A stretch of 40,256 bases of DNA from a virus (taxonomy: Duplodnaviria; Caudoviricetes): the IMG/VR virus record IMGVR_UViG_3300024309_000102, positions 1-40,256 of that record; one strand, written 5' to 3'. A model generated the notes under the pieces. It worked only from the letters and a program-made list of their open reading frames with translations. It did not search any database and had not been told where the DNA came from. Positions within the stretch are counted from its first letter, which is position 1; each line of letters opens with the position of its first letter. Of this stretch, positions 1-28,659 are shown piece after piece. A program made the translations under genes and the position numbers.

Positions 1-1257
1 TCAGGGTAAGGGTATAGGTTTTTTTGCCTTGGCGAGCTGCTCATCCAGGTAATCGGACCACCACTGCATCAGCTCGCGGCGCTCGTCCAGATACTGCGCA
101 TGGTTGTAGGCCCGGCGCACCTTGTTCTTGTCCTTATGGGCGAGCTGAGCTTCGATTGCTTTTTCCCGGAAGCGTCCCGATTCGTTCAAGATGGTGCTGG
201 CCAGGCCGCGGAAGCCGTGGCCGGTCTGCTGTTCCCCGTAGCCGAGAATTTCCAAAGCCCGGTTGATCGTCTCCCCGCTCATGGGGACAGAGTCGGGGCG
301 GCGGATCCCGGGAAACATCAACTCGTGGCGACCGGAATACACCTCCAGCTCATCGAGGAGCGCCAGAACCTGACGCGACAGCGGCACCAGGTGGGGCGGT
401 CCGCTCAGCTTCTGCAGGCGCGTACCCTTCATCCGCTCGGGCGGCACCGTCCACAGGGCGCCTGCGCGATCCCACTCCGTCCATTCCGCCCAGCGGAGTT
501 CGTTCGTCCGAACGAAGGTGCGCATCATGATCTTGATCGCAATGCGCGTTTCGGGCCGGCCGTGGTAGCCCTCCACGCGCTGCAGCAGCTCGGGAAGGTC
601 GGCCTGCTGAACGTGCGGGTGATGTTCTACCGGCGGCCTTGCTGCAAGGAATTGCTCCAGTCCGTAGGTGACGTCCGCATGCACGCGCCCGGTGCCGACA
701 GCGTATCGAAATACCATGCCGATGCTGCTCAGCACGCGGGCGGCCATTTCCAGGGCGCCACGGCGTTCGACCCGTCGGACTGCGTCGAGCACCATCTTTC
801 CTGAGACCTCGGTGACGGGCAGCTTGCCGAAGTAGGGAAAGGCGTCCCTCCTGAGCGCAGATGTCATGCGGTCGAGGTAGGCCGGGCTCCAGTGCTCGGC
901 GCGCGTGCCCAGCCATTCCTGCGCGATTGCTTCGAATGTGTCAGCGGCCGCCCTCGCGGCGGTGGCGCGCGCCAGCTCACGTTGCACGGCAGGGTCCAGG
1001 CCGGTGTCCAGGAGGGCCTGAGCCGCAGCGCGCTGCTCGCGCGCCTTGGCCAGGGGTATTTCGGGATATTCTCCGAACGTCACGGACGTCTCTTTCTTCG
1101 TGCCCGGCCGTCGGTACTTCATGCGCCAGAATTTGGAGCCGGACTTCGCCGTTTCCAGATACAGGCCGCCACCGTCGAATAAGCGGTTTCCACCGGCGGT
1201 CTTGTACTTTGCTTGCCGGCACTTCGCGTCTGTGAGGGGGACTACTTGGCGAGGCAT
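1..1257 (-). CDS. int: Tyrosine integrase with N-terminal arm-binding domain (P4-like)
   Basis: N-term LFDGGGLYL..GSKFWRMKYR..FGEYPEIPLAKAR; catalytic residues in FVRTNELR, HGFR, QLAH, AYNHAQY. Confidence 0.95.
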   Translation of the reverse strand: MPRQVVPLTDAKCRQAKYKTAGGNRLFDGGGLYLETAKSGSKFWRMKYRRPGTKKETSVTFGEYPEIPLAKAREQRAAAQALLDTGLDPAVQRELARATAARAAADTFEAIAQEWLGTRAEHWSPAYLDRMTSALRRDAFPYFGKLPVTEVSGKMVLDAVRRVERRGALEMAARVLSSIGMVFRYAVGTGRVHADVTYGLEQFLAARPPVEHHPHVQQADLPELLQRVEGYHGRPETRIAIKIMMRTFVRTNELRWAEWTEWDRAGALWTVPPERMKGTRLQKLSGPPHLVPLSRQVLALLDELEVYSGRHELMFPGIRRPDSVPMSGETINRALEILGYGEQQTGHGFRGLASTILNESGRFREKAIEAQLAHKDKNKVRRAYNHAQYLDERRELMQWWSDYLDEQLAKAKKPIPLP

Positions 1258-5005: not shown

Positions 5006-6091
5006 TTATCGGTATGCTTTGGTTAAATCAGCGCTTACGAAATGGCCACGCTTGCGCATGGCGTTCGCGATCAAGGCGCTGTCGTGGTGGCCGTCTGCAT
5101 GCCGCAGCAGGCCCAGATAGCTATTGCCCGTCTCGAAGACCTTTTCTTGGGGCAGCTCTTCAATGCGGCGCAAGGCGGTTCGGATAGATCGTCGGCGCAC
5201 TTCTCGCCGCCATGGTTTGATGACATGGCCGGCGAAATCGACGCCGCGGTCGATGGGCTGGAGGATGGTTTTGCGCGGGTTGAGTTCCAGGCCTAGCCGC
5301 GGCAGGTACGAGTTGACCGAAGCTAGGGCCTGTCCGAGCCACTGCGCGGACGGGTGAAGCAGAACAAAGTCATCCACATAGCGCACGTAATACTTGCCGC
5401 GCAGGCTATGCTTCACGTGCTTATCCAGACCATCCAGCAGGATGTTGGCGAAGAACTGGGACGACAGGTTTCCGATAGGCAGGCCGCAGTGGTCAGGAGC
5501 TTCACACAGACGCTTATGCCTTGGCACTAGGGCCAACGTCGCTCGGTTGCCGCGCACCTCTACGTCGGGCCTTGGGTCGTGGAACAGGATCTGGGCGGCC
5601 AATCGGCGCCACCAGTGTTCTGGAATCTTCCCGCCAACCCGAAGCCACAGATTGCGCTTGTCTATGCTGACGAAGAAATTGGCCAGATCCGCCTTCAGGT
5701 ACATGGCTTGGCGTGACCAGTTCTGCGTGACGCTCCGGATCTTAGATTCCAGGCGTTGGGCGGCGTACAACGTGCCTCGACCGGGAATGCAGGCGCACGA
5801 GTCGGCGATGAAGCTAGCTAGGAAGCGCGGGGCGATTTTGTTGTAAAGCAGGTGGTGAACCACTCGGTCCCGGAAATCGGCCGCCCACACCTCGCGCGGC
5901 TTGGGATGGGTTATCACAAAACAGATCGAGCGGCCGGGGCGGTAAACGCCGCTCCGAAGCTCGTCGTCCAGTTGGGCTAGGTTGCGCTCCAGGTTCATTT
6001 CAAAGCGCAGGGCGCTGGCCGTATTCCTTTTGAGCCGGCGACAGTCGAAGTAAGCCTGCACCAACTCCGCGAACGAATGGCAAGAATCCAT
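5006..6091 (-). CDS. DGR reverse transcriptase
   Basis: YVRYVDD active site, GLPIGNLSSQFFAN (DGR-type GxxxSQ), FRDRVVHH, LKADLANFF; no intron maturase/EN tail; GGAG RBS before ATG 6091 (alternative ATG 6106). Confidence 0.95.
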   Translation of the reverse strand: MDSCHSFAELVQAYFDCRRLKRNTASALRFEMNLERNLAQLDDELRSGVYRPGRSICFVITHPKPREVWAADFRDRVVHHLLYNKIAPRFLASFIADSCACIPGRGTLYAAQRLESKIRSVTQNWSRQAMYLKADLANFFVSIDKRNLWLRVGGKIPEHWWRRLAAQILFHDPRPDVEVRGNRATLALVPRHKRLCEAPDHCGLPIGNLSSQFFANILLDGLDKHVKHSLRGKYYVRYVDDFVLLHPSAQWLGQALASVNSYLPRLGLELNPRKTILQPIDRGVDFAGHVIKPWRREVRRRSIRTALRRIEELPQEKVFETGNSYLGLLRHADGHHDSALIANAMRKRGHFVSADLTKAYR

Positions 6092-6110
6092 AGAAACTCC
6101 GAGCATGATT

Positions 6111-6208
6111 TGCGGACGGGACGAACCCGGAACTCGTTGTTGCGGTTCCAGTTGTTGACGTTGCCGTTCTCGAAATTCACCGCCCAGGCGTTGTTGGAGC
6201 CGTAGGGC
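6111..6208 (-). repeat. DGR template repeat (TR), 98 bp
   Basis: Between avd and RT; reads PYGSNNAWAVNFENGNVNNWNRNNEFRVRPVR with 10 AAY codons; four copies elsewhere differ almost only at its adenines. Confidence 0.97.
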
Positions 6209-6350
6209 GAGATATCACGCTATCCACGTCGCCCCACCGAAGGTTTGCCGGATCAGCGGGGAAACTGCGCGGGACCTGGACGGCCGCAGCCGTTGGTTTC
6301 CACTAGTGCGCATATCGGTGGCCTTGTGGGCCAGCGGCGTGACCAGATCA

Positions 6351-6737
6351 TTAAGCGCGTTGGCCCGGCCGCCGTGACGACGGGGCAGCAAGCGCGTTCT
6401 CGGAGTGTTTCAGCCATCCTGTTGCCTGGCGGCCGATGTTATCGGTCAGCGCGATCGCTTCGCCGTATTGCCCGCGAGAGATCAACCGAAGGTCGGCCGC
6501 CAGCCGTAGCGACAGATTCGCCGCTTCTACCCCTTCCCGAAGGATTCGAATGATGGGCGGTCTGTCCGATGCCGAATTGGCCCGATACACCAGCATGACC
6601 AGCTCGAAGCACTGCTGGCGCAGGCCGGTCCCAAAGTCAGCCTTGTAGTTCCTGGGCATATTGGCCACCAGCTTCGTGACCAACAGGCTCAGGTCATAGG
6701 TAACCTTGAAAATCTTGGTGTCGGTGTGCAGGCTCAT
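6351..6737 (-). CDS. avd: DGR accessory variability determinant (four-helix bundle)
   Basis: 128 aa basic helical protein upstream of TR-RT; MPRNYK..G..LR and IGRQATGWLK motifs of Avd family. Confidence 0.9.
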   Translation of the reverse strand: MSLHTDTKIFKVTYDLSLLVTKLVANMPRNYKADFGTGLRQQCFELVMLVYRANSASDRPPIIRILREGVEAANLSLRLAADLRLISRGQYGEAIALTDNIGRQATGWLKHSENALAAPSSRRPGQRA

Positions 6738-6744
6738 GGCATCG

Positions 6745-6759
6745 GCGGGCTACGCCCGC
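6745..6759 (-). promoter_or_regulatory. DGR target-recognition hairpin after VR1
   Basis: GCGGGC-GTA-GCCCGC, 29 nt 3' of VR1. Confidence 0.8.
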
Positions 6760-6765
6760 AAAGGG

Positions 6766-7179
6766 TTAAAGGGATGAAGCGATGATGCTGCGGACGGGAC
6801 GAACCCGGAACTCGTGGCTGCGGTGCCAGACGTCGACGTTGCCGTGCACGAAATCCACCGCCCAGGCGAAGTAGGAGCCGTAGGGCTTGTTCGTCCAGTA
6901 CCAGTCGTCCTTATCGAACAGGTCCGGCACGTTGATGTAGGCCAGCATCATGTCTTCCTGGTCAGGGGCGCGCCAGTCGCAGTGGCCGTTGACTTCACCC
7001 CGCTCGGCCACGGCCGAAGCCAGATCCTCGAATTCGACGTCTACCAGGTCGAATTCAGCGACGCCGGGAATGATGATGTGATGGGTCACGCCGTCGATGA
7101 GGCGCGACCCGATGAAGACGCCGCCCTGCTCGGGCCATTCCTGCCCGATGGCGGGGGTGCTGGTTGCGGTTGCGGTCAT
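6766..7179 (-). CDS. DGR target protein 1, DUF1566/CLec-like
   Basis: 137 aa; QGGVFIG, DWRAP, WYWT, C-terminal VR ending FRVRPVR; AGGAG RBS. Confidence 0.9.
   Translation of the reverse strand: MTATATSTPAIGQEWPEQGGVFIGSRLIDGVTHHIIIPGVAEFDLVDVEFEDLASAVAERGEVNGHCDWRAPDQEDMMLAYINVPDLFDKDDWYWTNKPYGSYFAWAVDFVHGNVDVWHRSHEFRVRPVRSIIASSL
6789..6886 (-). repeat. Variable repeat VR1
   Basis: 98 bp vs TR: 12 mismatches, all at TR adenines (manual alignment). Confidence 0.95.
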
Positions 7180-7190
7180 GCAAGTCTCCT

Positions 7191-7205
7191 GCGGGCTGCG
7201 CCCGC
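7191..7205 (-). promoter_or_regulatory. DGR hairpin after VR2
   Basis: GCGGGC-GCA-GCCCGC, 30 nt 3' of VR2. Confidence 0.8.
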
Positions 7206-7221
7206 TTAAGGGGTAAATGGA

Positions 7222-7794
7222 TCAATAGGTGAATCTGCGGACGGGACGAACCCGGAACTCGGTGCTGCGGCCCCAGAGGCAGACGTTGCCGTTCTCGAAA
7301 TCCACCGCCCAGGCGTTGCAGGAGCCGTCGGGCGTAGAGGTCCAATAGACCTCCTTCTTGAACAGGTGGGGCAGATTTGCCGCGATGATCTGCTGTTCCC
7401 GCTTGGCGGGCAGGTAGAAGTCGGCGTGACCGTCTGCGCTATATGCCTTGGCGGCACGCGCTGCCGGGTAACTGGCGTTCAGACGGAGGAGGGTATTGGT
7501 GTTCACCAGGCCATCCCAGCTACTTGCTTGAATCTCGCCTTCGTCCGGGCTCCACAAATACTTGCCCTGCAGGTCATCCTCGGCCACGACCAGTCCGTAG
7601 ACAGTGCCGTCGTCGCCTAGGATGTCGCCAGCGTAGATACCGCCTTGGCCGGGCAGCGAAGCGCCGATCAACGCGGGGCGGGACAGTCGGGAGGGTGTGG
7701 AACTCAGGCGCTCGAGGAGCGCGTCAAGCGCGATGCGTGCAGGAACCTCCAGGCGCGAACCGCCGCCCAGATCCAACTGGATCGTGTCGTTCAT
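7222..7794 (-). CDS. DGR target protein 2, DUF1566/CLec-like
   Basis: ATG 7794 after AAGGAAAACC; GQGGIYAG, DFYLPAKRE, YWTST, VR at C-terminus. Confidence 0.9.
   Translation of the reverse strand: MNDTIQLDLGGGSRLEVPARIALDALLERLSSTPSRLSRPALIGASLPGQGGIYAGDILGDDGTVYGLVVAEDDLQGKYLWSPDEGEIQASSWDGLVNTNTLLRLNASYPAARAAKAYSADGHADFYLPAKREQQIIAANLPHLFKKEVYWTSTPDGSCNAWAVDFENGNVCLWGRSTEFRVRPVRRFTY
7236..7333 (-). repeat. Variable repeat VR2
   Basis: 98 bp vs TR: 11 mismatches at adenines plus one T>G near the 5' end. Confidence 0.95.
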
Positions 7795-7881
7795 GGTTTT
7801 CCTTGGGGATTTGCCGCGATTGCGGCGATGGGGCTTGCTCAAGGGCGCAGGAAGCCTTTCGGCGTTCGAGTTCCTGCGCCC

Positions 7882-8355
7882 TCAATCAAAAGGGATGTCG
7901 TCGTCCATGTCGGCGAGATTCGCCGAGGCTGGGGCTTGCTGTGCGGGCTGCCGTTACTGAGGGGCGGGACGTTGTGATGGCGCAGTGCGCTGCCGGCGTG
8001 GCGCGTCATCGTAACCGCCACTACCGCTGTCTTCGCGGGCGCCCAGCATCTGCATTTGGTCAGCAACGATTTCGGTGCTGTAGCGATCCTGGCCGCTGTC
8101 CTTGTCGGTCCATTTCCGCGTCGTCATGCGTCCGGAAACGTAGACCTGCTTGCCCTTGGTCAGGTACTCACCGCAAATCTCGCCCAGCTTTCCGAAGGCG
8201 ACGACGCGTACCCATTCAACGCCTTCCTTCTCTTTGGTCTTCCAGCCCACGGCCAAGGAGAAGTTGCAGACGGCTGCGCCATCGGGCGAATACCGAACGT
8301 CAGGGTCTTTGCCCAATCTCCCGATGAATTCGCATCGGTTGAGGTCATTACTCAT
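7882..8355 (-). pseudogene. ssb: Single-stranded DNA-binding protein with in-frame premature stop at 7954-7956
   Basis: LNRCEFIGRLGKDPDVRY.. OB fold; after TAA the same frame continues RQPAQQAPASANLADMDDDIPFD*. Confidence 0.85.
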
Positions 8356-9473
8356 GCAGGCTCCCCTTCAGGGATCAGGTTGGTTTGGTCCGGCTCTTCC
8401 TCGGGTTCGGTGGGTGCGTCGGGCTTCTCCCAGGCGTAATGCTTGCCTTCGAGCTTTACCCAGAGGTCGTCACGGAACATGTTGATGGTTGGCCAGTCGA
8501 AAGACTTGATACGTTCCCAGGAACGGCTACCGAATACGTCTTCCAGCAGGTCGCCCTTGGCCTTCTTGGCGTCAGCGGACTGCCCCGGGTGGTGCTTGCC
8601 GATGATCTCGGCAATCTCATCCAGAGCGATTTCCTTCATACGCTTCTCTTTCTGCCAGCGCGGCTCCCCGTCCTCTGCGAACAGTTCTTCGCTGGTCCGG
8701 CTGGTGTCGATCCCCAGATGCTCGCCGCCCAGGTTCAGGAACTCTATGTGCGGCAGGAAGTCGCGGAAGGCCGGGTTTTCGAACGTTTTGCCGTCTATGC
8801 GGGTGCTGCGGTCCTTGAGAACCGTAGCCGTGCGCCATACACGAGTACCGCCGCCCTCGACCAGCTCCTGGTTCTTCTCCATCAGGACCAAAATCGACGG
8901 CTCGTAGCCAGTCTCGGTTTCTGCCTTCATCTTGACCCCTGTCTTCGCGAGCTCCTTCTTGCCGGACTCGTTTTCGAAGAAGTCGTATTCGTAGCCAGCG
9001 CGGCCGCACATGATGATGTGGCACTTGCTGTTAACGAACAGGTCGGTGAACTTGCCCCACTCGGCCTTGAGCCATGCCCAGTCCTGAAATTCGAGGCCGC
9101 GCTTGCGATTCTTTCGCTGGGCGTATTCCTCGGTGAGGTTCCTCCAGAAGTGGCTAATGGAGTCGATCAGCAGCACGGACCCGGACGCCTCAGCTTCACG
9201 GATGGCGGTAAGAAGGTCCACGAATGCCCGAGTCTTGGCGGTGAACAGTTCGATATGGGCAGCATCAAAGCGCGGCTTCACCCAATCCGAGCCAGTCTCC
9301 GTGTCCAGAAACATGACCGGATTGTTTCCGGCCGGCAGTTCGCGCTGGCGCATCAGCTCTACCAATCCGATGGCGATCTCGGAAGCGGTGAAGGTTTTGC
9401 CGTCTCCGGCGAAGCCCATAATTCCAGCCTTCAAGTAGGCCTGGGTATTGGTGGCTCGTTGAAAGAGTGCCAT
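8352..9473 (-). CDS. AAA ATPase, Sak4-like phage recombination protein
   Basis: Walker A GFAGDGKT, LDTETGS, Walker B LLIDSISHFW; adjacent to ssb. Confidence 0.75.
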   Translation of the reverse strand: MALFQRATNTQAYLKAGIMGFAGDGKTFTASEIAIGLVELMRQRELPAGNNPVMFLDTETGSDWVKPRFDAAHIELFTAKTRAFVDLLTAIREAEASGSVLLIDSISHFWRNLTEEYAQRKNRKRGLEFQDWAWLKAEWGKFTDLFVNSKCHIIMCGRAGYEYDFFENESGKKELAKTGVKMKAETETGYEPSILVLMEKNQELVEGGGTRVWRTATVLKDRSTRIDGKTFENPAFRDFLPHIEFLNLGGEHLGIDTSRTSEELFAEDGEPRWQKEKRMKEIALDEIAEIIGKHHPGQSADAKKAKGDLLEDVFGSRSWERIKSFDWPTINMFRDDLWVKLEGKHYAWEKPDAPTEPEEEPDQTNLIPEGEPA

Positions 9474-9476
9474 GTC

Positions 9477-9638
9477 TTAATCCTTGGCGGCATAGGCCGT
9501 AGGGCGCCCGTCCTGGGCGATGGTTGTTTCGTCGCGCTGTTGGACTTCGCCGTAGCCGAAGAGCAGGGCAGTCAGAACAGCGGTGACGACGAAAGCGGAT
9601 AGGCGGGCGTCGCGGTCGCGCAGGAGGCGGCGGATCAT
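9477..9638 (-). CDS. Small membrane protein
   Basis: 53 aa, MIRRLLRDRDARLSAFVVTAVLTALLFGYG..; ATGA overlap with upstream gene. Confidence 0.6.
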   Translation of the reverse strand: MIRRLLRDRDARLSAFVVTAVLTALLFGYGEVQQRDETTIAQDGRPTAYAAKD

Positions 9639-9844
9639 TGGACGTCCCCTTCGGCGCGCGAGGGGAAGCAGCCTTCGCCGTCTTGACGGTCCAGATAGGC
9701 GCGGTGCTGACCAGTGCGGGCTTCCTGCTTGCGCGCCTTGCAGGACTTCGAGCATAAGCGCGCCCAGCCGCGTTTGCGGTCGGCCGTGCGCGCGGCGAAG
9801 GTGCCGCCGCACGCCAGGCACTTGTATTGGCCGGTGGAGATCAT
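9635..9844 (-). CDS. Small zinc-finger protein
   Basis: CLACGGTF..RGWARLCSKSC (CxxC...CxxxC); ATGA overlaps. Confidence 0.7.
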   Translation of the reverse strand: MISTGQYKCLACGGTFAARTADRKRGWARLCSKSCKARKQEARTGQHRAYLDRQDGEGCFPSRAEGDVQ

Positions 9845-10188
9845 TGGGCACCTCGGGCGGTCAGCGGGGTCTTGTCGTTGAACCATGCGTGGTCAAACGC
9901 ACGCATCGCGGCTTCGGGCGTATCGCCGAAGCCGGCCACGCCGTTCTGGAGGTTGTCGCCGTACAGCGCGCACCACTGGCTGCCGTCGATGCTCAGAACC
10001 GGACGAAACACCACGGCCGGGCGCTGCATTTCCGCGCCTGCAACGCCGAACTCTTGGGCGGCGCAGCGAATGATGTGGTCCGCATTGCCGAAAGCTTCGC
10101 GCAAGGCGCTTTCAACGGCTTGACCAACGTCGGCATGGCCAATGCGGCTGCGCACCGCGTCATAGATTGCTTGGTAGTTGTCGCTCAT
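9841..10188 (-). CDS. Phage hypothetical protein
   Basis: MSDNYQAIYDAVRS..DGSQWCALYGDNLQNGVAGFGDTPEAAMRAFD; coupled starts/stops. Confidence 0.75.
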   Translation of the reverse strand: MSDNYQAIYDAVRSRIGHADVGQAVESALREAFGNADHIIRCAAQEFGVAGAEMQRPAVVFRPVLSIDGSQWCALYGDNLQNGVAGFGDTPEAAMRAFDHAWFNDKTPLTARGAQ

Positions 10189-10511
10189 GCTCTGCTCCAT
10201 TCTGGCCAAAAGCCGCGCACGTATTGTTTGGTTTGGTAGTCGGCGACGTGGGCAATAGCCAGCGCCATCTGATCGCGACAAGAGATTCCGAGGATTCCGG
10301 ACGCCGCCAGTTCTAGGATCTTCTCGGGCCTGTCGGCGTCGCCTGCGATGAAAGCCAGCATGCGGGCGTCTGGGTTGTGCCATTCCCGCTCGAATGCTTC
10401 TATTACCGCCTGTCGATGCGTGAACAAGTCCCCCTCGATTTGCCGGTAAAGCTCCCCATACTTCTCGTCGTAGATTTCCTGGGGAGGGCTGAAGCTGAAT
10501 CGACTGCCCAT
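10185..10511 (-). CDS. Phage hypothetical protein
   Basis: 108 aa, AGGAGG RBS, ATGA overlap downstream. Confidence 0.7.
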   Translation of the reverse strand: MGSRFSFSPPQEIYDEKYGELYRQIEGDLFTHRQAVIEAFEREWHNPDARMLAFIAGDADRPEKILELAASGILGISCRDQMALAIAHVADYQTKQYVRGFWPEWSRA

Positions 10512-10527
10512 GTCGCCCTCCTGCAGC

Positions 10528-10544
10528 GCCAGCCTGCGGCTGGC
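10528..10544 (-). promoter_or_regulatory. DGR hairpin after VR3
   Basis: GCCAGCC-GCA-GGCTGGC, 29 nt 3' of VR3. Confidence 0.8.
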
Positions 10545-10559
10545 AAAGGGTTGAATTGA

Positions 10560-11033
10560 TTAAGGGATAAATCTGCGGACGGGACGAACCCGGAACTCGA
10601 GGTCGCGGCGCCAGTCGTCGACGTCGCCGTACTCGAAATGCACCGCCCAGGCGTCGCCGGAGCCGTAGGGCGTCGAGGTCCAGTAGTAGGATTTCTCGAA
10701 CAGTCCAGCGACCGCCGCAAGGCAAGCCATCCCTTCGTTCTTGGTAGGCAAGCGCCAGTCATAAAAGCCGCCGCCCTCGTATTCTTTTGCGTGTTGGCCG
10801 GCGACTTCCCATTCCTGCCGGCCCAGATTCTCATGAGCGACAATCAGGTGATGTACCTGGCCGTCTTCCACATAGGGACCTGCGTAGATGCCGCCCTGCA
10901 GTTCGGCTCCAATTCCCGCCGGCAGAGGGAAGGACGCTATCTCTTTCGGGGCCGTCGCCGTCGCGAGCAGCGTTTGAACCTGCTGGCGGATATGTTCCGC
11001 ATCGACGCCTTCGATATGAATCTGAATGCTCAT
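10560..11033 (-). CDS. DGR target protein 3 (remote), DUF1566/CLec-like
   Basis: ATG 11033 with GGAG RBS; LQGGIYAG, DWRLPTKNE, YYWTSTPYGS, VR at C-terminus. Confidence 0.9.
   Translation of the reverse strand: MSIQIHIEGVDAEHIRQQVQTLLATATAPKEIASFPLPAGIGAELQGGIYAGPYVEDGQVHHLIVAHENLGRQEWEVAGQHAKEYEGGGFYDWRLPTKNEGMACLAAVAGLFEKSYYWTSTPYGSGDAWAVHFEYGDVDDWRRDLEFRVRPVRRFIP
10574..10671 (-). repeat. Variable repeat VR3
   Basis: 98 bp vs TR: 13 mismatches, all at adenines. Confidence 0.95.
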
Positions 11034-11152
11034 GACTTCTCCATAGGGGAGTAGGTTGCTCAGGGCGGCGCACCCCCAGCCTTGGGTAAGGCTGACGGAG
11101 GGGCGTAGAGGAGGGAGTGGGATGCGCCGGCCTGAGCAGCCGAGGGAAGGAC

Positions 11153-11170
11153 GCCCCGGCAAGCCGGGGC
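11153..11170 (-). promoter_or_regulatory. DGR hairpin after VR4
   Basis: GCCCCGG-CTTG-CCGGGGC, 29 nt 3' of VR4. Confidence 0.75.
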
Positions 11171-11177
11171 AAAGGGA

Positions 11178-11639
11178 TTAATTGATCAAGCGATGATGCT
11201 GCGGACGGGACGAACCCGGAACTCGCTGCTGCGGTTCCAGGGGTAGACGCAGCCGTATCTCGAAACCCACCGCCCAGGCGTAGCTGGAGCCGTAGGGCGT
11301 CGAGGTCCACACATCGCCAACGTCTTCGCTGAACCCTTCGGCTGCCAACAGCAGCAGCGCTTCGCGATGGGAGGGCAGGTAGAAGTCCTTGTGGCCGTCG
11401 GCGCTGTATTCGGAAGCGGCCAGGGCTGCAGGATGGCCGCCGCGCTCCAGCAGCTTGCGGGTGTTCTCGGCGCCGTCCAGATCCGAGTAGCCTTCCAGCT
11501 TGTCGCCGCAGCCGCCAAATTCGAACTCGCCGTCCAGCAACTCTGCCGCGGCGAACAGGTGACGCCCCTGCGCGGTCTTGCCGATGTAGATGCCGCCCTG
11601 GCCCTCGGCGTATTGGCCAACTACGAATGCATTGCTCAT
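11178..11639 (-). CDS. DGR target protein 4 (remote), frameshifted inside its VR
   Basis: GQGGIYIG, DFYLPSHRE, WTSTPYGS; +1 nt at ~11257 moves the conserved FRVRPVRSIIA* end (stop at 11186) into another frame. Confidence 0.85.
   Translation of the reverse strand: MSNAFVVGQYAEGQGGIYIGKTAQGRHLFAAAELLDGEFEFGGCGDKLEGYSDLDGAENTRKLLERGGHPAALAASEYSADGHKDFYLPSHREALLLLAAEGFSEDVGDVWTSTPYGSSYAWAVGFEIRLRLPLEPQQRVPGSSRPQHHRLIN
11200..11298 (-). repeat. Variable repeat VR4 (99 bp)
   Basis: 11 mismatches at TR adenines plus a 1-nt insertion in an AAC codon. Confidence 0.93.
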
Positions 11640-11654
11640 TGAGTGATCTCCTAG

Positions 11655-12146
11655 TTATGCCGGGGTGCCGGCGTCGTAAGCTGGGTAGGGTGGCAAGGAG
11701 GCGACGATTGCTTGGCATGCAGCCAAGTCGCCGGCCCCGTAGTAGCGCATCTTTCCGCCTTCGCTTCGCTGGACGTTGTAACGACCAGGGCTTTTGGCTT
11801 GCCGATAGATGAAGGGATACCCAGACCTCGCAGCCTCGGCCCCTCTGTTCTGCATGTTGAGCAGATGGGGGACGTCGCGAAGGTTGCCGATTCTGTTATC
11901 GGAAGGGTTTCTGTTGATGTGGTCTATTTCATTCTTCGGCCAAGCACCGTGGCACATGAGCCATATGATCCGATGCTGGCGATAGGTCCGGCCGCCGATG
12001 CCGACGATCAGGTAACCCGCGCCGTCAATGGCTCGAAGGACCTTTCCGCTAGGCCCAGTCAATTCCCCGGTCTCTGGGTCATATCGGAACCTCTCAGCCA
12101 GGATGGACTTCAACTTTTCAAGATCCATTCCGCTCTCCTGTTTCAT
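11655..12146 (-). CDS. HNH homing endonuclease
   Basis: HRIIW..HG.WP..EIDHINRNPSDNRIGNLR..N; start may be ATG 12128. Confidence 0.88.
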   Translation of the reverse strand: MKQESGMDLEKLKSILAERFRYDPETGELTGPSGKVLRAIDGAGYLIVGIGGRTYRQHRIIWLMCHGAWPKNEIDHINRNPSDNRIGNLRDVPHLLNMQNRGAEAARSGYPFIYRQAKSPGRYNVQRSEGGKMRYYGAGDLAACQAIVASLPPYPAYDAGTPA

Positions 12147-12885
12147 TCAAAGCCCAGCACTCGGTGAATGGGGCTTCAGATGGACCGCTTACGCCCGGTC
12201 AGTCGGCAAAGTCACGCTATGCAGGTCGTCGCAACGCACAGAGTTGTCCGAACCGTCGGGCTCCACAATGTCCGGGTCACTGCATCCTGGGGAATCGGAG
12301 AAGAGGTAAGCGCCTTTGCTGCCGTTGATGGGTAGAACCGCGCTCTAACGGCTTACGCGTCCTGGCTATCCCGACTACGGGCCGCCCAGGCTGCGGTTTT
12401 GATCGTTCATTCGTCAGCCGGCGCTCCAAGAACGGGCTGACGGATGAAATTCCGGGGCAGTGCATGGCTTAGCTGTTCCCTCGCAACTATCCGGAAATTC
12501 CAGATAGTTGGTCATCGGCTCCAAGCCACGCACTGCCTCTTCAATCCACCGCAGGCCCAGCAACACAACTCGCCGAGCAAGGGAATGGATAGCCTCTGAT
12601 CTTTCGTCCGGGGTGGAGGGTTGCGCCCGGGGCCTAGCCACCTTTCGGTCATCGGCCTGTTCTATCGCTTTGCAGTCAGAGATCACGCAACATCCAGGTC
12701 TGGCGCCGGCCCGGGCCGCCATTCATGCCCGACATTCTTCCGACCCGGAATCGGCGTGGTGTACGTCACTGAGCGTCTACTTGGTATGGGCCTACCCACT
12801 CGAATGACCTAACAGCGCGCATGCCTGCGGCTGCTTTCGACGTTGCTGACACCAGCGCCAGACCTGGCTGCTCGTGATCTCTGGT

Positions 12886-14187: not shown

Positions 14188-14388
14188 CTACGCTCCGCTC
14201 AGGTCAAAGCGGTGGCCAAGCTTAAATTTGACGAATCCGCCACGCACAACATAGTGCGCACGCTCGCGCTCTGACTTAAGGATTTCATCAAGAGTGGCGG
14301 GTTCATCTTGGTTTCTGACGAGAACGGCCGGCAGATCGGACTTGCCGGCCGGTCGCGGGAACTGCGCGGGCTTCTGGCTTGTCTTCAT
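14188..14388 (-). CDS. Small hypothetical protein overlapping the protease 3' end
   Basis: AGGAAGAGAG upstream of ATG 14388; 66 aa; followed by terminator. Confidence 0.45.
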   Translation of the reverse strand: MKTSQKPAQFPRPAGKSDLPAVLVRNQDEPATLDEILKSERERAHYVVRGGFVKFKLGHRFDLSGA

Positions 14389-15277
14389 GGCTCTCTTCCT
14401 TTGCTTCAAAAAGTAACACAACCGGTTCGCGGCAAGGCGTGGTCGCCAGTGAACCCAATTCTATCAAAAGCTCATTCTCCGCGCTACTTGGCTGTCTGAC
14501 GGACTTGAACAGCCTTTGAGCTTCATCCCTGTCGATCACAAAGCTGTGAGAAGGATAGCCCATCAATAGATTCTCTAATGCTCGTGGAGCGAGGTTTTTA
14601 GGGCGTACATTCAATCTTTGTCCGTAAGCTCTTCCAACAGCCATTGATCGAGCGACTTCGCCAATTTTCTGAGGATCAATCTGGCGGTAGATCGGCTCGA
14701 AGAGCCCTTTGGCCACAGATGACGCAATGTCCGACGCGGTTTTAAGTGTTACTAGGCCCTGGCTATGGTCTTTGATTTGTCTCATGAAAGAGTCAAAGAA
14801 GCGGAATGCGTAATGCTCGAGATTGTCTAAGGCCTCGCTGATGACGAGGCCGGAGTCTCGTTCGTCGATCTCATCTCGCTTGGCCAGTTGAATATCAAGC
14901 GGGCCCAGTTCTGCCTCATCGCTCATAATTAAAGTATTGGCAGTGATTAAGAGCATAGTCCCAGCGCTTTTGCACCAGCCCGCGACAAGCGCTTCGCTTT
15001 GATCGTAAGTGTTCTGGATTGCTCGGCCAATACGAAATGCCACGTCCGGTGATCCACCTGGGGTAGCTAGAACAAAAATGAGTTTCTTTGGTCTGCTTTC
15101 GTTCGCGCGGCGGTCGCGAAGGATCTCCAATGCTCTTTCTTCTAGACCATTGAAGCAAGAGCCATTTATTAGCATGACGTCTGCATCGGACGCCCCGCAT
15201 AGAGCTAGCGCTTTTTCTTTTACCTGCTCAGGGTCTAGCGGCTTGGGCGCCGCTAAGAGATCGGTGGGCTCTTCCAT
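14303..15277 (-). CDS. ClpP-fold serine protease (SDH_sah/SppA-like), accessory gene
   Basis: LATPGGSPDVAFRI, CKSAGTML..AN.LIM...ELGPLDIQL, YPSHSFVIDRDEA; lower GC than phage core. Confidence 0.85.
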   Translation of the reverse strand: MEEPTDLLAAPKPLDPEQVKEKALALCGASDADVMLINGSCFNGLEERALEILRDRRANESRPKKLIFVLATPGGSPDVAFRIGRAIQNTYDQSEALVAGWCKSAGTMLLITANTLIMSDEAELGPLDIQLAKRDEIDERDSGLVISEALDNLEHYAFRFFDSFMRQIKDHSQGLVTLKTASDIASSVAKGLFEPIYRQIDPQKIGEVARSMAVGRAYGQRLNVRPKNLAPRALENLLMGYPSHSFVIDRDEAQRLFKSVRQPSSAENELLIELGSLATTPCREPVVLLFEAKEESHEDKPEARAVPATGRQVRSAGRSRQKPR

Positions 15278-15577: not shown

Positions 15578-16570
15578 TCAGGTTGCGGCAAAGCGGTTCC
15601 ATCGAAGTACATTTACCGTATGGGGAAATATGAGGAACTTCCCAATTCCCGCATACCCTTCAGCGGTCAAGTGTGCAGTGTCTTTGGCCAGTGAACCAGG
15701 AGGGATCCCTGCAGCCTGGTCCGCCAGGTCTTGTTGGCTGGGCGATTTCCCTAAATCTTCCCAAATTTGAGGAGACGTTAGCCATCCGCTGACGTCAATA
15801 AATCTGTCCCCATAACGCTGGGCATATATCTCATTGACGGCGTTCACCTGATACCGGGCCGGGTTAGACTCCCCGACGTTTCGATTTATGAAGTGGCCGA
15901 GCACGAGGATGCGCTTATTTCTAGCTGACATCCATTCATGCGCCTCATCGGTGTACCGCACGATTTTTTCGATGACCGCTTCTGAATCCCCATTAGGATC
16001 AATATCGTTTTTCCCCATCCAAAGCAACACTGGACCAGTTCGCTCTACCATCCCCTGTTCCGGAATGAATTCAGCGGGGCCATTGAGGCGGACGGGATCC
16101 CCCCCATTCTTTCTAGTAAATTCTAGCGGTCGATCTTCCCCTAGCCGTCGAAGCCTCCCATAGACCCCCTCAACGGTCCCCCAGTATTCGACATATCGAT
16201 AGAAATTGACGTTCGGCGCCGTTACTTCTATCGAGCCGGAAGCTGGGATGGTGTCGGCGGGGAATTTGAGCTTGGCAGCGTGACTACCAAGTCGTGCGCA
16301 TATCGTTTCCACACCTTGGCCAGATACCCCGCCGTTGAACATAGAGGCGCGGAACATGCTGCGTAGCTGAGCATCAAGGAGAGGGGCGGAAGACCAAGAA
16401 TGACTGTCTCCCCAGATTGCCCACTGTTCGGTTTCTTTTTCTTGTCGGGGAGGGATATCGACAGGTTCGGCAGGAGGGGATTTCGCCGCAAGTCGGAAAA
16501 AATAGGCGAGACCAGCTAGCCATGCGCCGCCCACTAGCACTGCCAACGTCAAAAAAATTGTAGTCTTCAT
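15578..16570 (-). CDS. Membrane-anchored SGNH/GDSL hydrolase
   Basis: N-terminal hydrophobic helix; blocks WGDS, NGGVSGQ, WMGKND, DTAH. Confidence 0.8.
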   Translation of the reverse strand: MKTTIFLTLAVLVGGAWLAGLAYFFRLAAKSPPAEPVDIPPRQEKETEQWAIWGDSHSWSSAPLLDAQLRSMFRASMFNGGVSGQGVETICARLGSHAAKLKFPADTIPASGSIEVTAPNVNFYRYVEYWGTVEGVYGRLRRLGEDRPLEFTRKNGGDPVRLNGPAEFIPEQGMVERTGPVLLWMGKNDIDPNGDSEAVIEKIVRYTDEAHEWMSARNKRILVLGHFINRNVGESNPARYQVNAVNEIYAQRYGDRFIDVSGWLTSPQIWEDLGKSPSQQDLADQAAGIPPGSLAKDTAHLTAEGYAGIGKFLIFPHTVNVLRWNRFAAT

Positions 16571-16787: not shown

Positions 16788-17132
16788 TCACTGCGACCAT
16801 TCATAGCCTCTGGCGGCCATCTTCTTGTAGGTCTCTCTGGCGCGGTCCAGCAATTGCGGCACGATCGGCTTCCCAAGATCATCAACCAGAACCACCACGA
16901 CGCCGCACTTACACCCCTCAATGTTTGAGGGGTCAGACCAAAACTCTCTTACTTGTTTGGCTGTGAATAGCTTCCCATGGCGTTCTGCGTGACTCTTCCT
17001 GGTCGTGGGAGAAAGCGCAGACAGGTGCATATACAACTGCTTTGAGCCAAATTTCTTGGCAGAAAGTTCCTCTTGGTCCAGGCGCCGCATACGCGACTCG
17101 TGCAGCGCATAGCTGGCTTCTGATGGGATCAC
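16788..17132 (-). CDS. Stand-alone MuF (head morphogenesis) C-terminal-domain paralog
   Basis: GTG start overlaps cI stop (GTGA); MHLSALSPTTR..H..RH.KLFT...CKC..V.VLVDD.GKP.VP aligns with 29989-30909 C-terminus. Confidence 0.8.
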   Translation of the reverse strand: MIPSEASYALHESRMRRLDQEELSAKKFGSKQLYMHLSALSPTTRKSHAERHGKLFTAKQVREFWSDPSNIEGCKCGVVVVLVDDLGKPIVPQLLDRARETYKKMAARGYEWSQ

Positions 17133-17758
17133 AGCTTGAATCCAACCCAAAACGCACGGCCAATGATCTCGATATCCGGGTCATCGAAGCTCAAGTGCAA
17201 GTCCTCATAAGCGGCAGCATTTTCGGACCGGGCGATGAATCCGCCGTTTCCCTTATATAGACGCTTTACCTTCACTTCATCGTGCTGACGGAAGGCGTAG
17301 ACCTTTCCGTTGACGATCGACGTCGCGCCACGGTTAACCAGGATCGTCGCGCCGTCCGGGATGAGGGTCTCCATACTGTCCCCTTTCACCGACACAGACA
17401 CTGTCTGTTCCGGGGTTGCTCCCGCGGATCGCAGGAAGTCTGCTCGGAACGATAGCCGAGTCATCTCGTCTTCGGTCAAAACAATCTCGCCATGACCGGC
17501 GGACAGGCGTACGTCCAGGCGCCTGATGGAGACAAATTCTTCGGTATCGGGGTCGGCCGTTGGCCCCACTGCCAAGTATTCGGGCGTTGTATTAAGCGCT
17601 TTTGCAACGGCCTCTAAGCGAGCACGTTTAGGCGCCGTTTTGCCGTTCTCCCACTGCTGGACGGTCTGCCAGGAAACGCGTACGCGATCGGCAAGCTGCT
17701 CCATCGACAGCCCGAGCTTTTCCCTAAGGTCTTTGATTCGTTTGTGGATCGTCGGCAT
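17129..17758 (-). CDS. cI: CI-like repressor (HTH + S24 autopeptidase)
   Basis: HTH RIKDLREKLGLSMEQLA..VSWQTVQQWENGK; LSAGHG cleavage site; GDSM serine and VKRL lysine. Confidence 0.93.
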   Translation of the reverse strand: MPTIHKRIKDLREKLGLSMEQLADRVRVSWQTVQQWENGKTAPKRARLEAVAKALNTTPEYLAVGPTADPDTEEFVSIRRLDVRLSAGHGEIVLTEDEMTRLSFRADFLRSAGATPEQTVSVSVKGDSMETLIPDGATILVNRGATSIVNGKVYAFRQHDEVKVKRLYKGNGGFIARSENAAAYEDLHLSFDDPDIEIIGRAFWVGFKL

Positions 17759-17773
17759 GCGCGCGAGGTTACC

Positions 17774-17835
17774 CACAAGAAAGGCTTGTGTCATTGCAGG
17801 AATTTCTTGCATTGCTAGTTTTTCTTGTATAGAGT
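17774..17835. promoter_or_regulatory. OR operator triplet with PR
   Basis: 17-bp imperfect palindromes CACAAGAAAGGCTTGTG (17774-17790), TGCAGGAATTTCTTGCA (17795-17811), TGCTAGTTTTTCTTGTA (17813-17829); TTGCAT-17-TAGAGT. Confidence 0.85.
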
Positions 17836-17842
17836 GGGCGTC

Positions 17843-18079
17843 ATGGACAAGAACTCCCACATCGCTCAAGCCATCACCAACGCCGGCGGCCCGGTGGCAA
17901 CAGCCAAAAAAACCGGCGCGAACAATTACCAGACCGTCCAGCAATGGGAGCGCTCCGGAAATGTTCCGGCCGAGTATGCCACTGCGTTAGAAGCGGCTTC
18001 CGGCATTTCTCGACGCCTGTTGTGCAAGCAATGGGCGAAGGTTTGGCCGGAACTGGCCAACGAGGCGAGGGCGGCATAA
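17843..18079 (+). CDS. cro: Cro-like HTH regulator
   Basis: 78 aa, divergent from cI; recognition helix QTVQQWE identical to that of CI. Confidence 0.88.
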   Translation: MDKNSHIAQAITNAGGPVATAKKTGANNYQTVQQWERSGNVPAEYATALEAASGISRRLLCKQWAKVWPELANEARAA

Positions 18080-20111: not shown

Positions 20112-20171
20112 TGCACACGCCTAGGGTAGCTCCCGAAAAGCCTGTCAGCCCGTCAGGCCTGGCGTTGTGCA
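20112..20171 (+). ncRNA. Candidate c4-like structured antisense RNA
   Basis: Outer stem TGCACACGCC/GGCGTTGTGCA enclosing hairpins GGG-TAGCT-CCC and GCCTG-TCAGCCCGT-CAGGC; loop GCCCGT complementary to ACGGGC at 20181-20186. Confidence 0.5.
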
Positions 20172-20201
20172 TTTTTCTTAACGGGCGGCAAAAGGGCAGC
20201 T

Positions 20202-23839: not shown

Positions 23840-23920
23840 TGCGCCCTTTGCTTCCCAGTGGAGAATATTCAACGATTGGATACAATTGTCGCTCACCACT
23901 ATCCGGCGAGCATCCCTCTC

Positions 23921-24922
23921 ATGGCATACGGCGATCCAACAAAATATTCCAAGGGTGAAGTGCGTAGGTCTGGGCTCGCACTTGTTCAAGGCGGAGACGC
24001 TCATGACCGAGAGGTCGTTAACAATTGGCGGAACGCCCATTCCTACATCATCAATACTTTCCAGGCTACATTACGCCTCTATATAAAGCGTAATGATGGC
24101 ATGGATGTTGTCATGGCGCAGCGCTTAAAGCGTCTTAAGACAATTGTTGACAAGTTAGCCACGGGCCGAGCCCGGGATTTGTCGACCATGCATGACCTAG
24201 CTGGATGCCGACTGATTTTCAATTCGATTGGGGATCTTCAGGAGTACCGGACCCAATTCCACGGGACGCGCGCCAAACATGAGCGGGTCGATGAGGATCG
24301 TTACGACTACATTGCTCACCCTAAGGCCACTGGGTACCGCGGTATTCATGAGGTATACAAATATGTGGCTTCCTCCGGAGGAGGGGAGAAGTACAACGGC
24401 CTGAAAATAGAGATCCAGTTTCGCACAAGAACTCAGCATGCTTGGGCCACAGCAGTAGAGATCAGCGATTTGCTCGACGGAGCTCGAATAAAGTTTGATC
24501 AAGGAGCAAACCCGAAGCGGGAGCGTCTATTTGTCTTGGCAAGTGAGTACTTGGCTCGTGTCAAAGAGGGGACATATGGGTACTGTCCTGATCTCACGGA
24601 TGCCCAGCTATGCGCCGAAATGCGTGGTCTAGAGAACGAGCTAGGAGTCATTCGCACTCTAGACATGGCTCGAAAAAGCAATACAGTCATTCCGCAGAAG
24701 AAGCATATTGTTCTACATTTCCACATGGACGAGCTTTCGGCAAAGGGGTTCAGCGACGCTAAGCAGGCAATGGAGTTCCGTGATGATGTGGAGAACGTTT
24801 ACCCCGAGGACGATATCGTGTACGTGAGTGCCGCCTCCCCCAGAGCAATCGCTGATGCATTTCGGAACTACTTCAGGGATGCCGTCGATTTCGTCGAGTA
24901 CGTGAAGCCAGCCCTTGGCTGA
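23921..24922 (+). CDS. capRel: RelA/SpoT-domain protein, CapRel-like fused toxSAS
   Basis: YSKGEV, NWRNAH, AQRLKR..TIVDKL, MHDLAGCR, DYIAHPK.TGYRGIH, IEIQFRT..QHAWATAVE; C-terminal DDIVYV..AFRNYF; start may be GTG 23858. Confidence 0.8.
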   Translation: MAYGDPTKYSKGEVRRSGLALVQGGDAHDREVVNNWRNAHSYIINTFQATLRLYIKRNDGMDVVMAQRLKRLKTIVDKLATGRARDLSTMHDLAGCRLIFNSIGDLQEYRTQFHGTRAKHERVDEDRYDYIAHPKATGYRGIHEVYKYVASSGGGEKYNGLKIEIQFRTRTQHAWATAVEISDLLDGARIKFDQGANPKRERLFVLASEYLARVKEGTYGYCPDLTDAQLCAEMRGLENELGVIRTLDMARKSNTVIPQKKHIVLHFHMDELSAKGFSDAKQAMEFRDDVENVYPEDDIVYVSAASPRAIADAFRNYFRDAVDFVEYVKPALG

Positions 24923-25680: not shown

Positions 25681-26577
25681 TTAGCTGTTTGGTTGGCTAT
25701 CAACGTCACTTCTTTCGGCTCGGGCAAGGTCAGAATTGAAAGCTCGAATTTCGAACGGAAACGAATTCATGTTCGTGCAGAGCCTTATGAACGCGTCACT
25801 GGATAGAGGAAGGTTGTCAAGTAATGCATACCGCTCCAGGTACAGTGTGAATGCGCGGCCCTGCGGGTAAAAGGCGTTGAAGAACAGAAAGCGAAGTTCT
25901 GGACTAGACAGCCGAGCCCTTACGATTGATACGTAGTCCCATTTTTCACTCTCCGTAAGGCCGGGGTGGCGGTCGACCCAGCGAACCAAAGTGAACAACG
26001 TCCGTATCAGGCGGCCGAGTTGAGGCTCATGCTCTCGGTAAACCAGCAACCACCAGTTGTGTATTTCAACGCGCAGCTCAACTCGTTGGTTTTCTTTGTT
26101 TTCCTCGCTGTTGCGTGAAAACTCGTTCAATCGGTACTCTGCGATCATGCCGTTGACCGCGCCGTCCGTTTCGATCATTTTTCCTAAGGCGTGAACGCCT
26201 GAGAGCCACTTGCCCGAGCGCTCAATTTCGAGCGAAGAAACCGCGTCGCTATAAGCAGCGAGCCAGGTGAAGAACGTCTGCTCGAATCCTTGCCGCGCAA
26301 TTTGAGTTCGTTGCTCCTCCAATTCGTCCTGCTGTGACCGCAGGGTTAAGACTAGGAGGATTATTGTGACGAGCCCGGCTACCGGGTTTACGACTCCACC
26401 TATGAAATCACCAAATTCTCCCCAGGTAGATGTGTTTGTCGAGAATGGCCCGTCGAAGTGATATCGGTAGACGGAGAACGCGGCTACCGCTGCTAAGAAT
26501 GGCAGCGTGATGGTGGCAGCAACCAGCTTAATGGTCCGCTTAGTTCGAGATGCTCTCTTTTGGCGCGATGTGGGCAT
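25681..26577 (-). CDS. Putative phage abortive infection protein (putAbiC-like), two TM helices
   Basis: WGEFGDFIGGVVNP, QQDEL, FEQTFF, YVSIVRARLSSPEL..LFFN, YALLDNL; opposite strand to late genes. Confidence 0.75.
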   Translation of the reverse strand: MPTSRQKRASRTKRTIKLVAATITLPFLAAVAAFSVYRYHFDGPFSTNTSTWGEFGDFIGGVVNPVAGLVTIILLVLTLRSQQDELEEQRTQIARQGFEQTFFTWLAAYSDAVSSLEIERSGKWLSGVHALGKMIETDGAVNGMIAEYRLNEFSRNSEENKENQRVELRVEIHNWWLLVYREHEPQLGRLIRTLFTLVRWVDRHPGLTESEKWDYVSIVRARLSSPELRFLFFNAFYPQGRAFTLYLERYALLDNLPLSSDAFIRLCTNMNSFPFEIRAFNSDLARAERSDVDSQPNS

Positions 26578-26620
26578 TCATATGCTCTGAAATGTGTTGT
26601 TACTTTGGACTATATTGAAA

Positions 26621-28455: not shown

Positions 28456-28659
28456 ATGGCGATCTTCAAACTGGCGGCGCTGGACGGCACCGTGTCGATG
28501 GTCGTCCGCGCGCGCTGCATTAGCTGTGCCCGGGCCGTTGCGGTCGAACACGCCGGGCCCGAAGGTACGCGGGTCTGGCGCGATTCCAGCCTATCCAGCG
28601 TCGAGCTGGTGCGCGAAACGGATAAGACGGCCCTGATTCTCAGGGCGGAGTGGATATGA
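28456..28659 (+). CDS. Small hypothetical protein
   Basis: 67 aa with CxxC; ATGA overlap with portal. Confidence 0.6.
   Translation: MAIFKLAALDGTVSMVVRARCISCARAVAVEHAGPEGTRVWRDSSLSSVELVRETDKTALILRAEWI

Follow-up and report, generated by a model that had tools for sequence, protein, structure and literature searches.

The retroelement and its targets

The DNA analysed here is the whole of the IMG/VR virus record IMGVR_UViG_3300024309_000102 (Duplodnaviria; Caudoviricetes), 40,256 nucleotides with a lambdoid prophage gene set, to which we refer as the window. Among its early genes lies a diversity-generating retroelement (DGR), which is real and complete: a reverse transcriptase (RT) gene and the accessory gene avd stand on either side of a template repeat (TR), variable copies of this repeat (VRs) lie in four small target genes (TG), and the cassette has the order TG-(TG)-avd-TR-RT (Table 1). 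A preliminary description of this DNA had reported the RT with its YVDD and GNLSSQ motifs, avd, a 98-bp TR and the four VRs, and all of these hold, including the coordinates of the repeats. The catalytic motif of the RT is intact (YVDD at residue 243, GNLSSQ at 212), its PHROG match has an E value of 4e-108, and translation probably starts at 6091. A repeat scan found one family with five copies, at 6.1, 6.8, 7.2, 10.6 and 11.2 kb. Judging from its position, the structured RNA RT-15 likely forms the 5' portion of the template RNA of the DGR.

In phage BPP-1, whose DGR is the model system, copying of the TR RNA by RT and Avd is error-prone at adenines, and the resulting cDNA takes the place of the VR, which is recognised via its 3' constant region and hairpin. 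In the window, TR adenines take 47 of the 48 substitutions found over the four VRs (hypergeometric P per VR 2e-7 to 5e-10), and the mismatch counts given previously, 12, 11 (plus one at a non-adenine), 13 and 11 (plus one insertion), were reproduced. When 163 VRs from the window and 75 related loci were considered together, 1939 substitutions were at A and 26 elsewhere, a ratio inflated by the detection filter. In a narrower set, 29 VRs of 11 close prophages with nearly identical TR, 339 of 688 A sites were unlike the TR as against five of 2154 other sites. The TR itself varies by 0-5 positions across 10 close relatives. Its 10 AAY codons were confirmed. The preliminary description had derived from them 15^10 (about 5.8e11) variants per target; with the TAC and GAG codons included, the theoretical library grows to 3.7e13, though both Glu codons were unaltered in 28 of 29 related VRs. 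Each VR is at the C-terminus of its target, followed by a constant 3' region and a GC-rich hairpin, whereas no hairpin follows the TR. Perfect stems of at least 6 pairs were found after 55 of the 163 VRs as against three of 76 TRs. Eight of the 163 VR alignments contain indels, three of them in frame and four to five frameshifting.

The claim that the VRs were mutagenised independently is supported by the comparison of adenine sites. VR pairs within a locus were alike at 11.1 of 24 such sites and pairs between loci at 10.4 of 24 (p=0.20); orthologous VRs agreed at 10.5 of 24 and paralogous ones at 10.4 of 24 (p=0.44). Likeness being no greater within loci or among orthologues, each target is randomised separately, with no visible convergence. 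The first comparison also rules out VR-to-VR copying inside one genome. An assembly error creating four repeats was likewise ruled out: the scaffolds share just 39-44% identity with target 2, and close orthologues of targets 1, 2 and 4 occur in other genomes.

All four targets match PHROG 4245, and Pfam Lcl_C (= DUF1566, PF07603) matches targets 1-3, target 2 slightly below the curated cut-off. These profile searches bear out the earlier assignment of the targets to a DUF1566/C-type lectin (CLec)-like class, and the lengths reported for them were also correct. There is no fifth paralogue within the window. The AlphaFold model of target 2 (pLDDT 93) has a C-type lectin fold, whose nearest solved structure is the C-terminal domain of Legionella Lcl (8q4e; Foldseek E 1e-6, Z 13.9, root-mean-square deviation 2.9 over 120 residues); the Z score against Mtd of BPP-1 (1yu0) was 6.9. 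For the N-terminal module of target 2 we found no match in the Atlas and no sequence match in the PDB, and the fold search was uninformative (Z <=2.7). An Atlas search with target 3 returned nothing beyond unnamed viral Lcl_C clusters.

The preliminary description was right in counting four VRs but overlooked the state of target 4. A base inserted in VR4 near 11257, opposite an AAC, shifts the reading frame, and the conserved C-terminal FRVRPVR strand is lost; because of this frameshift the window has three intact targets only. Six intact orthologues of target 4, of 150 aa, were found. A contig from run X1, possibly the source sample, also has the insertion, which the divergent contigs of runs X2-X4 lack. 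One 5.5-kb contig of run X3 (record 20) carries a divergent element with a target-3-like and a target-4-like gene in tandem (window 10529-11639), without the insertion.

In a tree of 46 scaffolds from which the VRs had been removed, four classes were seen, matching targets 1, 2, 3 and 4; target 3 clusters with the remote targets of loci L016 and L022. The ratio of nonsynonymous to synonymous substitution rates (dN/dS) of the scaffold was 0.10-0.20 for target 1 (against 10 orthologues), 0.06-0.23 for target 2 and 0.12-0.26 for target 4, and was computed for these three classes only, target 3 being without a close orthologue. The classes persist across RTs that are just about 70% identical. Four separate orthologue classes and a scaffold dN/dS of 0.06-0.26 indicate that the paralogue classes are old and maintained by selection, which is purifying in the three testable classes.

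Table 1. Features of the DGR and of the early arm in the window (positions in the 40,256-nucleotide record)
Feature	Position	Strand	Remarks
Integrase	1-1257		End of leftward early arm; Pfam/PHROG
DGR reverse transcriptase	5006..6106	-	366 aa from first ATG; RVT_1; PHROG 1423
TR	6111..6208	-	98 nt, 24 A, 10 AAY codons
RT-15 structured RNA	6208..6397	-	Between avd and TR; Rfam RF03018, 162.7 bits, full length
Avd accessory protein	6351..6737	-	128 aa; Pfam bAvd, PHROG 3206
Target 1	6766..7179	-	137 aa; bare CLec2/Lcl_C domain; PF07603 E 8e-9
VR1	6789..6886	-	12/12 mismatches at TR adenines; GC hairpin downstream 6745-6759
Target 2	7222..7794	-	190 aa; N-terminal beta-hairpin-helix module (residues 4-31) and CLec domain
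VR2	7236..7333	-	11/12 changes at adenines (other T>G); GC hairpin 7191-7205
ssb (premature stop) and Sak4-like recombinase	7954..9473	-	Between the two target pairs; Pfam/PHROG
Target 3	10560..11033	-	157 aa; divergent class, short N-terminal extension; PF07603 E 1e-10
VR3	10574..10671	-	13/13 changes at adenines; GC hairpin 10528-10544
Target 4	11178..11639	-	153-aa product, frameshifted inside VR; without last CLec strand
VR4	11200..11298	-	11/11 substitutions at adenines and 1 inserted base; GC hairpin 11153-11170
HNH endonuclease	11655..12146	-	Immediately upstream of target 4; Pfam/PHROG
CI-like repressor	17129..17944	-	Heads leftward early arm; Pfam/PHROG

Early-arm position in the window and in related loci

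The phage is temperate and carries its DGR amid early genes. The prophage genes recognised in the window by Pfam and PHROG comprise an integrase, a CI-like repressor, DnaB, terminase, portal, capsid and tail tube, and the targets sit in the early arm that runs from repressor to integrase. This is not the arrangement of BPP-1, in which the target is Mtd, a tail receptor-binding protein of the virion module; here the targets are early-arm proteins of 137-190 aa. The statement that they lie more than 15 kb from the virion genes is correct for the linear record, where the terminase small subunit is at 26594 and the portal at 28650, but has little meaning if the genome is circularised.

The non-tail position proposed in the preliminary description recurs in the relatives. 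An early marker was present in 67 of the 75 related loci. CI was found upstream on the same strand in 22 of them, cro upstream on the opposite strand in 14 and cII likewise in nine; the integrase was downstream of the targets on the same strand in 38 and on the opposite strand in three, and the neighbours included ssb (16 loci), an exonuclease (16) and a recombinase (14). Clusters of neighbouring genes occurring in at least 3 loci numbered 75; setting aside three that belong to the DGR and 18 that were short or likely spurious, 54 were scanned. The best matches of the scanned families were to integrases, repressors, recombinases, SSB, methyltransferases, ParB and one endolysin; for none of the 54 was it a head or tail family. 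In 15 whole records no further target was found outside the early arm and none in the tail genes, apart from two weak chromosomal matches (E 2e-5 and 3e-4).

All 49 viral loci and all three named phages have a TR with one to three VRs, as do 27 of the 33 genome loci. The lineage counts leave out L078 and L082-L085, whose RTs are 32-40% identical and belong to another lineage, as well as L058, L067, L069, L070 and L077, which are mostly short and in which no TR/VR pair was found. Several loci are redundant (clustering at 95% RT identity gives 64 clusters), and target counts based on VRs are lower bounds, the VR finder having missed VRs in L004, L011 and L058. A profile search for paralogues within 10 kb, in 77 loci many of which are truncated, found four in the window alone, three in 17 loci, two in 53 and one in six. 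In one relative the TR (L004:9896-10000) has lost several adenines and looks like a VR, while the locus keeps three target genes; the template may have decayed or been converted, or the assembly may be chimeric.

The median target length in the lineage is 152 aa (5-95% range 121-207). A lipobox occurs in 0 of 162 targets, and hydrophobic stretches were seen only as borderline cases, in four in-lineage proteins. All four window targets are stand-alone domains without an export signal. Adjacent targets tend to form asymmetric pairs, in which only one of the two members carries an N-terminal extension (54 of 65 pairs); after clustering of the RTs at 80% this was the case for 17 of 23, with about half expected from pairing at random. 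Five of the top 150 profile hits have two target-like domains in one chain, some of which resemble read-through of the spacer. In the tandem fusions P0139, P0140, P0147, P0153 and P0189 each domain has a VR-like C-terminal segment. Among 28 longer relatives only Lcl_C, fn3 and Ig-like domains were seen, and no fusion with a DNA-binding or effector domain, which is weak evidence of absence; a search for longer homologues gave two unrelated surface-type proteins.

RTs that are 91-92% identical are in Achromobacter prophages or genomes, and relatives of target 2 carry the names of several Achromobacter species; a member of this genus is thus the likely host. In the ssb gene an in-frame stop at 7954-7956 (- strand) leaves SSB with 133 aa and without its acidic DDDIPF tail. 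Contigs of runs X1 and X2, from two studies, carry the stop; the four relatives with alignments covering the position do not. Other elements of the record are two Rfam RNAs, Proteo-phage-1 at 12317-12396 (-), upstream of the block of HNH and target 4 genes, and int-alpA at 20114-20184 (+), and, in the stretch separating the repressor from the early arm, a ClpP-like SDH serine protease (14303-15277, -) and a GDSL/SGNH hydrolase (15578-16570, -). Defence-like cargo is represented by a RelA/SpoT-domain protein at 23858-24922 (+), which has a PADLOC match to PDC-S33 (E 2e-91), and by a putative AbiC-like protein at 25681-26577 (-).

What the targets may do

To our knowledge, the phage DGRs studied experimentally all diversify a receptor-binding tail protein. 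The lineage described here, spread across phages of Beta- and Gammaproteobacteria, diversifies tiny early-arm proteins instead. We tentatively favour the reading, to which we would give a little less than an even chance, that the targets are intracellular variable binders of fast-evolving proteins (host defence factors, rival mobile elements) and serve in phage-host conflict. The preliminary description had proposed much the same, a library of binders inside the cell for anti-defence or host takeover, and this remains an inference. The complete, CLec2-class DGR has rewritten the C-terminal ends of four small lectin-fold paralogues; mutator and targets would be expressed together upon infection or induction, and the target proteins, having no export signals, would stay in the cytoplasm. 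There they might bind their ligands stoichiometrically via the VR loops, possibly in a multivalent manner through the N-terminal modules. The frameshift in target 4 may have arisen from an indel error of the RT, and a later round of retrohoming could overwrite it. An argument for this reading is that the scaffold is under purifying selection while the binding loops are fully re-randomised, which would suit a fast-changing ligand and therefore host defence or rival elements.

Several observations weigh against intracellular binders. PADLOC gave no match to any of the targets. The promoter scan was at chance level (2 hits, 5.8 expected), as was the terminator scan. The RNA-labelled run X2 spans all 30 bins of the early and the replication/late stretches evenly; because of this even coverage we took the run as DNA-like and did not use it for expression. 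The contigs of the second study are identical at VR1-VR3, although assembled contigs drop rare variants, and the window copy bears lesions in target 4 and ssb; for these reasons current activity of the DGR is not established. The record terminates within the tape-measure gene (position 40256), so the tail-fibre genes of this phage fall beyond its end and were not seen; a contig of run X1 extends about 10.9 kb further. Finally, the closest solved relatives of the target fold are surface adhesins (Lcl, a fimbrial protein and Bd2740), and viral structure matches (ranks 2, 10 and 11) show the same domain at the end of tail-fibre, collagen-repeat and S74-peptidase proteins.

The last two of these points, the adhesin relatives and the fibre-terminal domains, also speak for a role in the virion, in which the targets would be small adhesins or tips joined non-covalently to fibres or capsid, with host-range tuning as in BPP-1. 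The authors of Burkholderia phage Magia suggested a change of host range for similar proteins (PMC7883833), and Roux et al. (PMC8144416) allow for unrecognised structural proteins in the target cluster PC_00009. We nevertheless regard this explanation as rather unlikely: the early-arm position is lineage-wide and on the strand opposite to the replication and late genes, the 15 whole records have no target in the tail module, and a fibre or anchor domain is absent. It is also possible, in our view unlikely, that the targets regulate host takeover or the choice between lysis and lysogeny by binding conserved host proteins and are diversified to fit the alleles of each new host. Lambda has regulators of such kind in CIII, N and Kil, whose operon position the targets share, and distinct classes under purifying selection would suit distinct fixed partners. 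About 1e12 variants are, however, hardly needed for conserved host proteins, and orthologous VRs, no closer to each other than paralogous ones, do not appear to converge on a single ligand.

Production of the targets from internal promoters in the lysogen, where they would detect or stop incoming phages by superinfection exclusion or as a prophage-borne variable immune receptor, would agree with the other defence-like cargo of the prophage (the PDC-S33-matching RelA/SpoT-like and the AbiC-like protein) and with the signalling roles proposed for variable CLec domains of cyanobacteria (PMC7517822). We consider it quite improbable, as the arm in question is normally silenced by CI, the promoter scan found no internal promoter, and none of the 28 longer relatives has a fused effector domain. 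Very improbable, in our estimate, is that the DGR is a hitch-hiker with minimal targets of little function: the frameshifted target, the truncated ssb and the frameshifting indels among the 163 VRs would fit it, but the low dN/dS of the scaffolds, the endurance of the classes across diverged RTs and the presence of TR and VR in all viral loci do not.

The idea of intracellular binders can be carried further, to an antibody-like library in which the scaffolds are re-randomised at each induction, the N-terminal modules give multivalent or two-chain binders, and inhibitors of defence evolve on demand. The two-chain element comes from the conserved long-plus-short pair and the occasional tandem fusions; as a whole we hold this extension to be distinctly unlikely. 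If the targets do bind defence proteins, then phages would own an adaptive counter-immune system, and scaffolds of 120-190 aa would be compact binders that can be evolved in vivo.

Comparison with known DGRs

The novelty implied by the preliminary description was overstated: Wu et al. 2018, Roux et al. 2021, the Magia report and Benler et al. 2021 all came before, and the architecture is already catalogued, the window adding one more case. In Table S1 of Wu et al. 2018 (PMC5758913), 18 CLec2/d1 cassettes have the order TG-TG(-TG)-avd-TR-RT with two or three targets, and 18 of the 20 rows with the order TG-TG-avd-TR-RT are CLec2/d1. About half of the category d targets are the bare domain, and the hosts of the CLec2/d1/B1 group include B. 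cenocepacia H111, Pseudomonas, Thauera, Polaromonas and other Proteobacteria. The element of the window resembles this group in gene order, in short DUF1566-only targets with C-terminal VRs, in extra non-adjacent targets 3-10 kb off, and in indels next to AAC; the TR section of that paper illustrates indels opposite or beside AAC, as in VR4. It differs from the rows of two or three targets in its four paralogues, which belong to four classes and of which one is frameshifted, and the accessible part of Wu et al. makes no tie between CLec2 cassettes and phage early operons.

The clade 3 prophage DGRs of Roux et al. 2021 (PMC8144416) are likewise prophage-borne Proteobacteria elements of the Legionella clade with uncharacterised targets. 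Their PC_00009 targets are labelled non-structural or unknown, with 15.8% predicted structural, and the cluster additionally holds membrane-bound cellular targets. From its class and host range, the element of the window would belong to PC_00009. Among other systems, Benler et al. 2021 (PMC8008677) describe a second, non-structural DGR target of Quimbyvirus and propose that it acts in phage-host conflict. Quimbyvirus is similar in that a phage DGR target is distant from the structural genes, and different in being a Bacteroidetes phage with a frameshifted RT and one structural besides one non-structural target. Intracellular regulatory targets were described for cyanobacterial DGRs by Vallota-Eastman 2020, and the iLund4u preprint deals with a different, tail-linked class. 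In the literature searched, which did not extend to most subscription papers and two supplements of Roux et al. 2021, we found no functional test of CLec2 early-arm targets.

With BPP-1 (mtd-avd-TR-brt) the window shares the core parts and the adenine-specific rewriting of a C-type lectin fold; BPP-1 has a single CLec1 target, a tail receptor-binding protein of 376 aa, as compared with four small CLec2 targets outside the virion module. The phages Magia, Cruim01 and Haboob have the same layout as the window. The RT of Magia (MT701587; PMC7883833) is 64% identical, its DGR lies in the early arm between repressor and integrase, and its short lectin-fold targets are located near avd with a remote one in addition, three VRs being detected in the present scan. 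Magia differs in host and tail type and has three targets, two of which were named by its authors, who proposed adaptation or host-range change without a test. What is new here is the presence of four paralogues in one locus (1 of 77) and the asymmetric pair of a long and a short target. The window thus contributes the largest paralogue set in the sample and a natural frameshift, while the cultured phages Magia, Haboob and Cruim01 are already as well suited as the window phage, or better, for testing the function of the targets.

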